A stretch of DNA of 64,000 nucleotides from Escherichia coli (GTDB taxonomy: Bacteria; Pseudomonadota; Gammaproteobacteria; Enterobacterales; Enterobacteriaceae). The DNA is taken from the NCBI RefSeq assembly GCF_016903815.1, contig NZ_CP069973.1; one strand, written 5' to 3'. The stretch's first letter is position 1. Every line of letters begins with the position of its first letter. This document shows, piece by piece, positions 9,088 to 43,268 of this stretch. The notes beneath the pieces were generated by a model, which worked only from the letters and a program-made list of their open reading frames with translations, searched no databases and had not been told where the DNA came from. The translations under genes and the position numbers were made by a program.

Positions 9088-9885
9088 TTAGAACATTACC
9101 TTATGACCGTACTGCTCAAGAATGCCTTTCACGCGTTCCATGGTCTCTTTCTTCGGTGGTTTAACACCATCAAGTTTGTATTCTTCACCCATCGCCACCC
9201 ATTTGTGTTTGCCAAGTTCGTGGTAGGGGAGAAGCTCGATTTTCTCAACGTTGCCCATATCACGGGTAAATTCACCGAGGCGATGCGCTGAATCGTCATC
9301 GTCAGACCAGCCTGGGACAACAACGTAGCGGATCCACACCTTCACATTTTTGTTCGCCAGATATTTGGCGAACTCCAGCGTGCGGTGGTTTGAAACTCCA
9401 ACCAGATTTTGGTGGATCTCGTCGTTCATCTGTTTGAGATCGAGCATTACCAGGTCGGTTACTTCCAGCAGTTCATCAATCACCGGATCGTAACGACGAA
9501 CAAAACCGTTGGTGTCCAGACAGGTATGAATGCCTTCTTTTTTGCAGGCGCGGAACCAGTCACGAACAAACTCAGCTTGCAGGATTGCTTCACCGCCGGA
9601 TGCGGTAACGCCGCCGCCGGAAGCGTTCATAAAGTGGCGATAGGTCACCACCTCTTTCATTAAATCTTCAACGGTAACTTCTTTACCGCCATGCGTGTCC
9701 CAGGTGTCGCGGTTATGACAATACAGGCAGCGCATCAGGCAGCCCTGGAAAAAGGTGATAAAGCGAATACCCGGGCCGTCTACGGTTCCACAGGATTCAA
9801 AGGAGTGAATGCGACCAATAACTGACTTGGTAGCCCCCGCCGCAGCGGTATTTTCTGTTGTATTACAATTAGTTAAATTACTCAT
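9088..9885 (-). CDS. pflA: pyruvate formate-lyase activating enzyme (radical SAM); 5' end rebuilt by prophage-derived sequence
   Basis: Radical-SAM CxxxCxxC motif (CLMRCLYC) and body of PflA from ...[22 protein letters not shown]; the first 20 codons ([20 protein letters not shown]) lie in prophage-side sequence upstream of the att core. Confidence 0.85.
9814..9826. repeat. attL core (13-bp direct repeat ACCAATAACTGAC)
   Basis: Identical 13-mer at 43269-43281 at the opposite prophage end; lies within pflA codons 2-5 (native numbering). Confidence 0.6.
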
Positions 9886-9916
9886 ATCGCTTCAATTGGC
9901 TCTAGTTAACTCTGGT

Positions 9917-10912
9917 TTATGGACGCATTATGGACATTCCTGACACCGGGTTAAGAGTCACAGCATCTTGTAAGAAATCCGGTGCAAAGTGTGCGTAGGT
10001 CATAGTTTGCTGAATGTTAGAATGACCCAGGATGCGCTGCAATGTGATTATGTTACCTCCATTCATTATAAAATGTGTGGCAAATGTATGCCTCAAAACA
10101 TGCACTGCCTGTCCGTCAGGTAAATCGGGTTTTACTTCCCTGAGAGCGTTGCGCACTTTGTAGTAACTGGCATTAAAAAGCCTGCCTGAATTTTTGGTCT
10201 TGATCCGTTTAATCAGGTCCTGCGAAACGGGAATTGTCCTGCGCTTTCCGTTTTTAGTTTTCATAAACGTAACCATCTGGTTAATGATGTGTTCAGCTTT
10301 CAAATTAGACACTTCACTCCAGCGTCCACCAGTAGAAAGGCAGACCAGAGTTGCATTTAACTCATCACCATCAAGCATGGATAACAGCCGCGTAATCTCT
10401 TCACTGGACAAAAAAGCCATTTCCGTAACAGCTTCACGTAACCGCTTAACCTCACGGAACGGGTTGTGAGAGTGATATTCACCGGCGTCAATTAACTTGG
10501 TGAACATCCCGCTCATTATTGCCAGATGCCGATTTACGCTGGCTGGTTTTAGGCCATCGTTCATCATTACAACGCGATAATCAGTTATCGTTTTCTTTGT
10601 TAGCTGGTCCGCCCTGGACACTCCCATCTCGGCAAATTTGGCGATTATTGTCGTCAAACGCCCTCGTTCAATATCTCCACGCTCATGTGATTTTCCGTGA
10701 TATATCCACCATCTGCCTAACAACTCTGTAAGAGTTCGGCGGTCGGCCGGCTTCTCCAACCACTCTTTGTTGTGGTAGTTAACCAGGACATGACGTTCGA
10801 ATGCTTGAGCTTCACCTTTAGTTTTAAATTTCCGCCTGATACGTTTTCCATCTGCACCCTGCGGTCTGACGTCCACTTCATAACGACCATCATCGAGCTT
10901 TTTAATAGACAT
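9917..10912 (-). CDS. int: phage tyrosine integrase
   Basis: 331 aa; C-terminal catalytic region with HVLRHTFAT...GHSNIQQTMTYAHF (R-H-R-Y type); adjacent to att core. Confidence 0.9.
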   Translation of the reverse strand: MSIKKLDDGRYEVDVRPQGADGKRIRRKFKTKGEAQAFERHVLVNYHNKEWLEKPADRRTLTELLGRWWIYHGKSHERGDIERGRLTTIIAKFAEMGVSRADQLTKKTITDYRVVMMNDGLKPASVNRHLAIMSGMFTKLIDAGEYHSHNPFREVKRLREAVTEMAFLSSEEITRLLSMLDGDELNATLVCLSTGGRWSEVSNLKAEHIINQMVTFMKTKNGKRRTIPVSQDLIKRIKTKNSGRLFNASYYKVRNALREVKPDLPDGQAVHVLRHTFATHFIMNGGNIITLQRILGHSNIQQTMTYAHFAPDFLQDAVTLNPVSGMSIMRP

Positions 10913-11005
10913 AAAGCCCTCCGATGACGCTGTTTACTTCTACTACTTGAAAATTAATGCAATTTTCTTTCGTACATTTACTGCACACATATGCTGAATA
11001 AATCG

Positions 11006-11317
11006 TCAGCCAGTCTTTTGGTCTGAGTGGTGCAAGGTTGTTGAGTCTTGCCCAATGTGCGCGAGCGCCGGGGCTATTTGTCCGCCAGCGGGATCAGTTT
11101 CATCAAACATGAACCAGTCACGGTACTTGCGAAATCTTTCTGGCTTGAAAAATTTCATACCTGCGTCAAAAGACATCTTTACTTTTCCCTGCTCATATCC
11201 AGCATAGGTGTTGTAGTTAATTCCAGTTAATTCAGCAACTTGCTTCCTTGTCATTCTTTCTGATTCCCGAATAAGTGCGAGTTTCTCTGCTTGAGATGTG
11301 ATTTGTGTATTTGACAT
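11006..11317 (-). CDS. phage immunity repressor (P2 C-like, HTH)
   Basis: Small HTH protein (MTRKQVAELTGINYNTYAGYEQG) divergent from the early operon, next to int as in P2; start codon uncertain (11317 or 11365). Confidence 0.6.
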   Translation of the reverse strand: MSNTQITSQAEKLALIRESERMTRKQVAELTGINYNTYAGYEQGKVKMSFDAGMKFFKPERFRKYRDWFMFDETDPAGGQIAPALAHIGQDSTTLHHSDQKTG

Positions 11318-11421
11318 GAATTGTCGTATCTCGTAATTTATGTTGTATGCGACACGCCAGAACAACGCAGAGCGGCTTCAAATAGCTCTGATTGAATGGC
11401 ACCAAAGTTGAGGATATCAAA

Positions 11422-11778
11422 ATGAGTATTGGATCAGAAATGAATAACGATGTTGGAGAAAAAGTATCTGATCTCACAAAAAGTAAAAAATGTGACATCA
11501 AACTTGCAGCCGCACCGTCGGATTTGCTCTCGAAAGAGGGTTTTGCTCTTTACATCGGTAAGACGCCTCGTGCTGTTGCTGAAATGGCGAAAGCAGGCAA
11601 GTTACCAGCCTTTTATATGACGGACCCATTAAAGCCGGGCGGTCATGCTGAGTTATGGATTAATCGTCGTGAGTGGGACAAGTACGCAGCCCAGCTAGTT
11701 GATGAAGCTCCGACAGAATGGCATGACTGGAAAAATCGCATTAGTTACAGCAAATCAAGACATGGCCGTGCGGCTTAA
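11422..11778 (+). CDS. Cox/Apl-like early regulator / excisionase (putative)
   Basis: First gene of the early operon, divergent from the repressor; HTH-like segment (ALYIGKTPRAVAEMAKAGKLPA); start uncertain. Confidence 0.4.
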   Translation: MSIGSEMNNDVGEKVSDLTKSKKCDIKLAAAPSDLLSKEGFALYIGKTPRAVAEMAKAGKLPAFYMTDPLKPGGHAELWINRREWDKYAAQLVDEAPTEWHDWKNRISYSKSRHGRAA

Positions 11779-41691: not shown

Positions 41692-42854
41692 TGCTGGATG
41701 CACTGACATTTGATGCAGGCAGTACGCTGACGCCGGATTACATGCTGATGCTCGACAGCAGGGATATTACCGGCAATATCAGCGGCCGTCTGATGAGCAT
41801 GACCCTGACGGATAACCGGGGCTTTGAGGCTGACCAGCTTGATATTGAACTGAACGATGCCGACGGGCAGGTCGGGCTGCCGGTTCGTGGCGCTGTCCTG
41901 ACGGTGTATATCGGCTGGAAAGGTTTTGCCCTGGTATGCAAAGGGAAATTCACCGTTGATGAGGTAGAACACCGGGGCGCGCCGGATGTGGTCACCATCC
42001 GGGCCCGGAGTGCAGATTTTCGTGGCACGCTCAATTCCCGCCGTGAAGGCTCCTGGCATGACACCACGCTCGGTGCGATTGTTGAGGCGATAGCCTCCCG
42101 TAACAGGCTGGAAGCCAGTGTCGCTCCGTCACTGGCCGGAATTAAAATCCCGCACATCGACCAGTCGCAGGAGTCTGATGCAAAATTCCTGACCCGCCTT
42201 GCTGAACGCAACGGCGGTGAGGTGTCGGTAAAAATGGGAAAACTGTTGTTTCTCAAAGCGGGGCAGGGGGTGACGTCCAGCGGTAAAAAAATCCCGCAGG
42301 TCACCATAACCCGCAGCGACGGCGACCGCCATCATTTTGCGATTGCTGACCGTGGAGCCTATACCGGCGTAACGGCAAAGTGGTTACACACCAAAGACCC
42401 GAAGCCACAAAAGCAGAAGGTAAAACTGAAACGAAAAAAGAAAGAGAAACACCTGCGCGCACTGGAGCACCCCAAAGCGAAACCAGTCACGCAGAAGAAA
42501 GCGCCAAAAGTACCGGAAGCGCGCGAAGGTGAATACATGGCCGGTGAGGCTGACAACGTTTTTGCCCTGACCACGGTATATGCCACGAAAGCACAGGCCA
42601 TGCGCGCCGCTCAGGCGAAGTGGGATAAACTGCAACGGGGTGTAGCGGAGTTCTCCATCAGTCTGGCTACTGGTCGGGCAGATATTTACACGGAAACGCC
42701 GGTCAAAGTGTCAGGCTTTAAGCGCGTCATAGACGAGCAGGACTGGACAATCACTAAGGTGACACATTTTCTGAATAATAGCGGCTTCACGACGTCCCTG
42801 GAGCTTGAGGTCAGGCTTTCTGATGTGGAGTACGAAACCGAAGATGATGAGTGA
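41691..42854 (+). CDS. tail protein D (late-gene product)
   Basis: 387 aa, size as P2 D. Confidence 0.8.
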   Translation: MLDALTFDAGSTLTPDYMLMLDSRDITGNISGRLMSMTLTDNRGFEADQLDIELNDADGQVGLPVRGAVLTVYIGWKGFALVCKGKFTVDEVEHRGAPDVVTIRARSADFRGTLNSRREGSWHDTTLGAIVEAIASRNRLEASVAPSLAGIKIPHIDQSQESDAKFLTRLAERNGGEVSVKMGKLLFLKAGQGVTSSGKKIPQVTITRSDGDRHHFAIADRGAYTGVTAKWLHTKDPKPQKQKVKLKRKKKEKHLRALEHPKAKPVTQKKAPKVPEAREGEYMAGEADNVFALTTVYATKAQAMRAAQAKWDKLQRGVAEFSISLATGRADIYTETPVKVSGFKRVIDEQDWTITKVTHFLNNSGFTTSLELEVRLSDVEYETEDDE

Positions 42855-42936
42855 TGTGTTTTATTTTATCTGTTTGTTTTATAAGGATAAATTAACTAAA
42901 ATGGCAACATCAACAAAACCGGAAGAGGTGCTCGCG

Positions 42937-43155
42937 ATGTTTCATTGTCCTTTATGCCAGCATGCCGCACATGCGCGTACAAGCCGCTATATCACTGACA
43001 CGACAAAAGAGCGTTATCACCAGTGTCAGAACGTGAATTGCAGCGCCACGTTCATCACTTATGAGTCGGTACAGCGATACATCGTGAAGCCGGGAGAAGT
43101 CCACGCCGTAAGACCGCACCCGTTGCCGTCAGGGCAGCAAATTATGTGGATGTAA
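42937..43155 (+). CDS. ogr: Ogr zinc-finger late-gene transcription activator
   Basis: 72 aa from internal Met; C4 zinc finger CPLCQ...CQNVNC; last prophage gene before attR. Confidence 0.8.
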   Translation: MFHCPLCQHAAHARTSRYITDTTKERYHQCQNVNCSATFITYESVQRYIVKPGEVHAVRPHPLPSGQQIMWM

Positions 43156-43166
43156 TTACAATCAGG

Positions 43167-43194
43167 AAGCCCCTCAGTCGAGGGGCTTTTTTTG
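43167..43194 (+). terminator. rho-independent terminator after ogr
   Basis: AAGCCCCTC-AGTC-GAGGGGCTT followed by TTTTTTTG. Confidence 0.7.
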
Positions 43195-43268
43195 TCGATG
43201 TGGTCAATATGTGGACGTGACCAGAAATAAATCCTTTTATTTCATGTGATTAGATATCAAAAAATGTC

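Follow-up and report, generated by a model that had tools for sequence, protein, structure and literature searches.

A structurally complete P2-type prophage at pflA in Escherichia coli, with anti-phage modules in its accessory loci

The locus and its integration site

The stretch of DNA considered here (64,000 nucleotides in all, hereafter the window) is 100% identical to NZ_CP103521.1, from a human blood isolate, which identifies it as E. coli chromosome. It contains a P2-like prophage of 33,442 bp (9827–43268), collinear with phage P2 (33,593 bp), whose cargo includes a Type VI retron, a gene for an FRG-domain protein, the gene orf30 and a Shedu nuclease. Whereas pflA and pflB adjoin in K-12, here they are separated by this P2-type gene set, and the site of integration is marked by the following features.

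9088–9885, minus strand: pflA (RefSeq annotation), one flank of the prophage
9814–9826: attL core, overlapping the first codons of pflA; first copy of an exact 13-nucleotide repeat, ACCAATAACTGAC
43269–43281: attR core, second copy of ACCAATAACTGAC, followed by the displaced native ATG of pflA and its upstream region
43475–45757, minus strand: pflB (RefSeq annotation), the other flank

When attL and attR were aligned with two references, attP from phage vB_YpM_46 and the interval between pflB and pflA of K-12 (as attB), attL proved to consist of a bacterial arm, the core and a phage arm, and attR of a phage arm, the core and a bacterial arm. Judged from the alignment, this is the pattern of a classical site-specific recombination product, with the core and both reciprocal arms present; the integrase would have inserted the phage at the 13-bp core, which overlaps the start codon of pflA. 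The borders at 9827 and 43268, as already given in a first-pass annotation of this DNA, are exact, because the two cores enclose exactly the phage DNA. The junction between pflA and int was found in 404 of 5426 complete E. coli genomes. It is not the published site of PhiECO5/UTI89 (immunity class IX), a candidate that was ruled out since that prophage sits between serS and dmsA.

Integration has altered the 5' end of pflA. The native start codon is lost (CAT to CTT on the plus strand), and a new in-frame, phage-derived ATG lies at 9885, 29 nucleotides downstream of the int stop codon, so that the PflA of the lysogen is predicted to carry an N-terminal extension of 19 residues, with the native methionine replaced by lysine. 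The native upstream region has been moved 33 kb away, to attR. From the loss of the start codon and the displacement of the upstream region, pflA is probably transcribed in lysogens together with the C–int operon of the phage. On the other side of pflA, ycaN and ycaK, present in K-12 between ycaM and pflA, are absent, leaving only an annotated pseudogene remnant of 111 nucleotides (8879–8989).

The phage backbone

All 42 annotated P2 proteins were compared with the window by tblastn, which, together with the search for cis-acting sites, placed the parts of the backbone as follows.

9917–10912, minus strand: integrase (tyrosine recombinase), 53% identical to P2 Int
11789–15821, plus strand: early replication operon orf78, B, orf80–83 and A (A at 13533–15821)
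15379–15404: ori nick region within A, identical to P2
19464–19482: cos cohesive-end sequence GGCGAGGCGGGGAAAGCAC, 19/19 identical to P2, between the A-side cargo and Q
19652–22458, minus strand: portal Q and large terminase P, 99–100% amino-acid identity to P2
22632–28828, plus strand: late operon O, N, M, L, X, the lysis cassette Y, K, lysA, lysB, lysC (26177–27953), then R and S
29769–34748, plus strand: baseplate and tail-fibre operon V, W, J, I, H, G
36552–42854, plus strand: tail operon FI, FII, E/E', T, U, D, with the slippery site GGTTTTTTG intact
42937–43155, plus strand: late-gene activator ogr, 72/72 amino acids identical to P2

Every essential P2 protein was matched end to end at full length, as were those of orf78 and orf80–83. 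Amino-acid identity to P2 is 92–100% for Q, P, O, N, M, L, X, Y, K, R, S, V, W, J, I, G, FI, FII, E, T, U, D, ogr, B and A, and 94–96% for lysA, lysB and lysC. No inactivating lesion emerged from this comparison, with neither frameshift, truncation nor insertion in any essential gene, and the full-length matches, together with the identical cos, bear out the first-pass description of an intact P2-like prophage with the P2 gene order, cos and a lysis cassette. The cis-acting sites point the same way: P2 is matched base for base at the activator sites of pO/pP and pV, the slippery site of E/E', the nick region of ori and two terminators (tQ and that of the O operon), and the pF activator region is diverged from P2 with its TGT-N12-CCA arrangement kept. 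From int to H, the prophage is 96–97% identical to records of phages isolated on Yersinia pestis or E. coli (vB_YpM_46, P24A7b, 11W).

The P2 proteins for which tblastn returned no match in the window are those of orf91, tin, old and fun(Z). At the left end, Int, C and Cox are only 53%, 48% and 35% identical to their P2 counterparts, and because of this the prophage is assigned, by sequence, to an immunity and integration type other than that of P2. The tail fibre H (gene at 32195–34219) is 67% identical to P2 H overall, next to a G at 92%; its divergence probably reflects exchange of a host-range module.

The immunity switch

Next to the integrase gene lies an immunity module of the P2 type, in which a short repressor consisting of a helix-turn-helix (HTH) alone is paired with a Cox-family protein.

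11006–11317, minus strand: C-type immunity repressor, 103 amino acids, HTH only, 48% identical to P2 C
11422–11778, plus strand: Cox-family excisionase and repressor, 35% identical to P2 Cox

This C/Cox switch would hold the lysogen. C, with 103 residues and an HTH only, is too short to include a LexA-like cleavage domain. No LexA box (CTGT-N8-ACAG) occurs anywhere in the prophage (9827–43268), and no tum-like gene of the 186 type was found, the cargo following directly after gene A. Prophages of the P2 type are classically not SOS-inducible, and excise poorly even if derepressed. Since C is HTH-only and both the LexA box and tum are absent, this prophage too should not be SOS-inducible, although it is probably viable. 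The first-pass suggestion that it is probably inducible thus finds no support, and mitomycin C, proposed there as the means of induction, is ill-suited to an immunity module that has neither a LexA box nor a cleavable repressor.

Cargo between A and Q: a Type VI retron and an FRG-domain gene

The slot between A and Q (15822–19463) has a GC content of 0.31–0.39, against 0.52–0.61 in the backbone, and low-GC islands within the same range also occupy the S–V and G–FI gaps. It holds two separable modules, of which the first is a complete Type VI retron.

15950–16237, plus strand: predicted noncoding part of the hybrid RNA (shuffle test, conservation, RNAalifold)
16238–16393, plus strand: small protein (SP) of 51 amino acids, predicted toxic effector of the retron (phrog_15287, E = 3e-39)
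16397–16412, plus strand: 3' inverted repeat, invariant, downstream of the SP stop; its predicted partner is TGGAGCAGGGGG (~16137–16148), a pairing that would close the hybrid RNA
16430–16750, plus strand: HTH protein, antitoxin or regulator of the retron (PADLOC HTH_VI, E = 6e-30)
16716–17666, plus strand: retron reverse transcriptase (PADLOC RT_VI, E = 1e-105)

The assignment rests on both proteins and RNA. The reverse transcriptase (RT) is matched best by the RT_VI model, the next type scoring 4e-45, and has the motifs NAKIH, YVDD and VTG; directly upstream, and overlapping it by 35 nucleotides, lies the HTH gene, whose Cro/C1-type product has the conserved R7. The SP matches a PHROG that is itself of 51 residues, and its frame is intact, with 67–100% of amino acids conserved, in every homologous locus collected (E. 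coli, Klebsiella phages, IMG/VR contigs). The ~290 nucleotides upstream of SP have a much more stable predicted fold than shuffled controls (z = -4.7), and across six homologous loci their conservation exceeds that of the stretch coding for SP. In the RNAalifold consensus these loci share a long stem with a variable tip, where some have an insertion of 18 nucleotides, and which is a putative msd template; a hairpin lies at 16109–16135, and the ribosome-binding site of SP (AAGGAG) is paired with 16167–16174. Ten base pairs show compensatory changes, among only six fairly close sequences. A longer reading frame of 130 amino acids that starts at TTG and ends with SP (16001–16393) was judged spurious, having no PADLOC match and no annotation in RefSeq or P2.

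In the published Type VI retrons Retron-Vpa2 and Retron-Eco12, RNA, SP, HTH and RT form an operon in which the SP toxin is encoded inside a structured hybrid RNA (bioRxiv 10.1101/2025.10.22.683967). In Retron-Sen3, HTH neutralises SP, and inhibition of RecBCD releases it (bioRxiv 10.64898/2026.04.27.721009). RT-dependent synthesis of single-stranded DNA and phage defence have been demonstrated for all three (bioRxiv 10.1101/2025.10.22.683967; bioRxiv 10.64898/2026.04.27.721009). The prophage retron is like them in the order RNA–SP–HTH–RT, in the overlap of HTH with RT, and in a small protein with a hydrophobic C-terminal half; likewise in the structured upstream RNA, the sequestered ribosome-binding site of SP and the inverted repeat around its coding sequence. 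The modelled RNA, as an in silico fold of six fairly close sequences, matches the published hybrid-RNA architecture. No retron RNA family was matched in an Rfam scan of 9000–44000 at E <= 1, and no Rfam family exists for Type VI retron RNA. Scans for sigma-70 promoters in both cargo regions gave counts not above the shuffled expectation. The part of SP as toxic effector is predicted after the published systems (bioRxiv 10.1101/2025.10.22.683967). By analogy with these retrons, HTH and the RNA structure would hold SP silent until phage recombination proteins, or the inhibition of RecBCD, are sensed, upon which SP would be released and the infection aborted. The regulation may be translational, with derepression by msDNA, or post-translational, with control by HTH and surveillance of RecBCD.

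The second module is a single gene on the opposite strand.

17775–19139, minus strand: FRG-domain protein, 454 amino acids (PADLOC candidate PDC-S15, E = 9e-98)

The PDC-S15 models match residues 168–452 strongly, and Pfam FRG (PF08867) covers residues 191–281 (E = 5e-21). Residues R195, H197, E223 and E229 are invariant. The FRG domain has been placed in the ADP-ribosyltransferase (ART) superfamily by Aravind and co-workers (PMC9503650); in fold searches, the C-terminal FRG domain of the present protein gave weak ART-fold matches only. Preceding it is a domain of ~165 residues whose fold matches resemble the EVE, YTH and ASCH readers of modified nucleic acid. The protein would thus join a predicted reader domain to a predicted NAD-using effector of the ART fold. 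A possible trigger for the reader is nucleic acid that a phage has modified (with hydroxymethyl-cytosine, glucosyl-cytosine or m6A, say), whose detection may activate the C-terminal domain. No experimental report of defence by FRG/PDC-S15 was found in the literature.

Retron and FRG gene are neighbours in one slot, and 59 genomes as well as phage P22H1 have the pair at >=99% identity, so that they might be thought to form one combined system, in which the divergently oriented FRG gene supplies an added retron effector. This is very improbable. The retron occurs without FRG, beside unrelated neighbours, in O157:H7, other E. coli and P2-like phages of Klebsiella, and FRG homologues recur without the retron, and with different neighbours, in other P2-like hotspots. 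The two sets of genes also converge on opposite strands, and the Type VI retrons in the literature are whole systems made up of SP, HTH, RT and RNA. From this distribution of its homologues, the FRG gene is read as an autonomous single-gene module beside the retron.

Cargo between S and V: orf30

The S–V slot holds one gene, transcribed against the late operons.

28900–29685, minus strand: orf30, a non-essential gene of P2, 261 amino acids, of which 258/261 are identical to P2 Orf30

Its position between S and V and its antisense orientation are the same as in P2. The first-pass annotation had described all three slots as filled with cargo distinct from that of P2; this holds for A–Q and G–FI, where tin, old and fun are absent, and fails for S–V, where the gene is P2's own orf30. 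A frame of 77 amino acids alongside it (29685–29918) was judged spurious, again for want of a PADLOC match and of annotation in RefSeq and P2.

The gene is AT-rich (GC 0.35) and patchily distributed: it is carried by 21 phage records, compared with ~180 that match the backbone, and by 463 of 5426 E. coli genomes, and a 32%-identical homologue fills the same slot of another P2-like phage. By these sequence comparisons the S–V locus is a genuine accessory position. The orf30 family is small, and its alignment has a conserved D-x-Q-L-F...N-G-I-N-V...D-A motif. Because the sequence has three hydrophobic stretches, which can be read as membrane helices, a membrane protein is suggested. The AlphaFold2 model is confident and largely helical, with only generic helical-bundle matches in a fold search. 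In phage pro147, there is no gene at all between S and V (16571–16638 of that phage).

Could orf30 be a third or fourth piece of anti-phage or superinfection-exclusion cargo, which would make defence loci of all three slots? Its composition, antisense orientation and non-essential status, the patchy distribution with absence from pro147, the predicted membrane location and conserved motifs, and the homologue in the same slot elsewhere are all consistent with such a function. It is doubtful all the same, as orf30 matches no Pfam, PADLOC or NCBIfam family, its fold matches are generic, no published phenotype was found, and it is the same gene as in P2, hence not different cargo. Equally tentative is a wider proposal, that the FRG protein is a new single-protein abortive-infection system, with a reader and an ART-fold domain acting as NADase or ADP-ribosylating enzyme, and that orf30 encodes a membrane-anchored exclusion factor. 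If both were true, the prophage would have four defences that differ in mechanism, and two of these would be experimentally new.

Cargo between G and FI: a Shedu nuclease

The third slot, corresponding to the Z/fun locus of P2, holds a Shedu gene between two inverted repeats.

34801–34832: left inverted-repeat arm around the Z-locus cargo, matching a repeat_region feature of AJ512677
35039–36265, plus strand: Shedu nuclease SduA, 408 amino acids (PADLOC SduA, full length, E = 1e-219), with a DUF4263 nuclease domain
36336–36367: right inverted-repeat arm, matching a repeat_region feature of AJ512677

SduA is identical in 407/408 amino acids to the E. coli Shedu protein EcSduA (PDB 8PS4/8PS5). 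EcSduA is a tetramer whose N-terminal domains sense free ends of double-stranded DNA; it nicks DNA at a fixed distance from the 5' end, and lowers the plating of T2 and T6 more than 30,000-fold (bioRxiv 10.1101/2023.08.10.552762). From its hotspot, the near-identical protein of the prophage would likewise sense free double-stranded ends and nick.

The cargo DNA is 99.2% identical to AJ512677, deposited as "P2-EC31 proviral Z-region", in which a putative lysogenic conversion gene and flanking inverted repeats are annotated. In that record of 2003, the Shedu frame is given as 362 amino acids (321–1409), compared with 408 in the window; because the DNA is 99.2% identical, the shorter frame probably stems from a premature stop or a sequencing discrepancy in the older entry. 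The arms of the 32-nucleotide inverted repeats are 84% complementary, and may mark the recombination borders of the Z hotspot. The sole hit of the Rfam scan, to the L20 leader at 36345–36459, was rejected, at 26 bits against a threshold of 58.7, and corresponds to a GC-rich terminator hairpin (36427–36447) with a T-run upstream of FI.

The first-pass annotation had counted up to three candidate anti-phage functions in the prophage. Anti-phage cargo is indeed present, but the count was wrong: there are two established systems (retron and Shedu), one database candidate (FRG/PDC-S15), and orf30. Of all the parts, just the FRG protein and orf30 lack a known function.

Distribution of the cargo and completeness of the prophage

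Among the 5426 complete E. coli genomes, the retron with FRG occurs at >=99% identity in 59, and the Shedu module in 52. The retron and FRG cargo is also 99.6% identical in phage P22H1. Retron and Shedu share one prophage in the source strain, strain 7/2 and strain 98192. In CP020516 (strain 222), CP162406 (PEC1021) and CP029579 (DA33137), identical retron–FRG and Shedu modules are megabases apart on the chromosome, where they presumably sit in different P2-like prophages. The A–Q slot of pro147 (3374–7363 of that phage) has, in a near-identical backbone, quite different cargo, with a different RT of 396 amino acids followed by an AlkB-like gene; its "RNA-directed DNA polymerase" was considered as a counterpart of the prophage's retron and ruled out, being a larger, different RT next to that AlkB-like gene.

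The most probable reading, at roughly 0.88, is that of a structurally complete Peduovirus prophage at pflA, with a P2-type C/Cox lysogeny switch and accessory loci that carry a mosaic of anti-phage modules. A prophage may look intact and nonetheless be unable to complete its lytic cycle, being kept by the host as a fixed defence island. Such domestication would fit the generally poor excision of P2-type prophages, the diverged pF activator site, and the recurrence of the pflA junction in 404 genomes, which could reflect vertical inheritance. It is an improbable account, since the essential genes are free of frameshift, truncation and insertion, all cis sites that were tested are intact, and backbone and cargo are each found at 96–99.6% identity in phage records. 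Moreover, the cargo modules reassort between P2-like prophages of different genomes, which argues for ongoing phage-mediated exchange.

As to the compatibility of carrier and cargo, P2 replicates as monomeric circles and is not known to encode functions of the Red/Gam type. On these grounds, if they hold for the present prophage, lytic growth of the carrier should rarely produce the free DNA ends reported to trigger Shedu, or the phage recombinases and inhibition of RecBCD reported to trigger Type VI retrons.

Here one temperate phage of 33 kb equips a clinical E. coli strain with a retron and a Shedu nuclease, plus one or two candidates yet to be characterised. That the same defence modules occur in other combinations in other strains matters for the prediction of phage-therapy resistance in bloodstream E. 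coli. FRG/PDC-S15 and orf30 are two small, easily cloned genes for functional testing, and the prophage as a whole opens no new category.

Relation to known phages and defence systems

The prophage shares with P2 (NC_001895) and with isolated peduoviruses (vB_YpM_46, P24A7b, 11W, P22H1) the gene order, cos, ori, lysis cassette, late activator sites and orf30. It differs from P2 in Int, C and Cox, in an attB at pflA, in the replacement of tin, old, orf91 and fun(Z), and in the 67%-identical H. Among its modules, the retron has an SP of 51 residues, near in size to the 55-residue SP of Vpa2 and unlike that of Sen3/cl2075, at 79 residues. Shedu differs from the solved EcSduA (PDB 8PS4/8PS5/8PS6) by one substitution, with S131 here and P in the solved protein. 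The FRG protein agrees with PDC-S15 over residues 168–452 and with Pfam FRG (PF08867) over residues 191–281, the N-terminal EVE/YTH/ASCH-like domain being an extra.

The hotspots described for P2 and P4 elements hold cargo beside cos, between gpA and the portal gene, and also inside the tail-gene region (Rousset et al. 2022, PMC9122126; Moura de Sousa et al. 2026, bioRxiv 10.64898/2026.02.27.708500). From these the prophage shows no substantive difference, having the same cargo sites and the same rapid swapping of modules between near-identical prophages. Of the P2-like elements with complete defence systems, about 10% have them spread over two or more hotspots (Moura de Sousa et al. 2026, bioRxiv 10.64898/2026.02.27.708500), and the prophage belongs to this group. 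With the P2 hotspots, Type VI retrons and EcSduA already described, it is an ordinary member of the well-described P2-like phages with filled defence hotspots.

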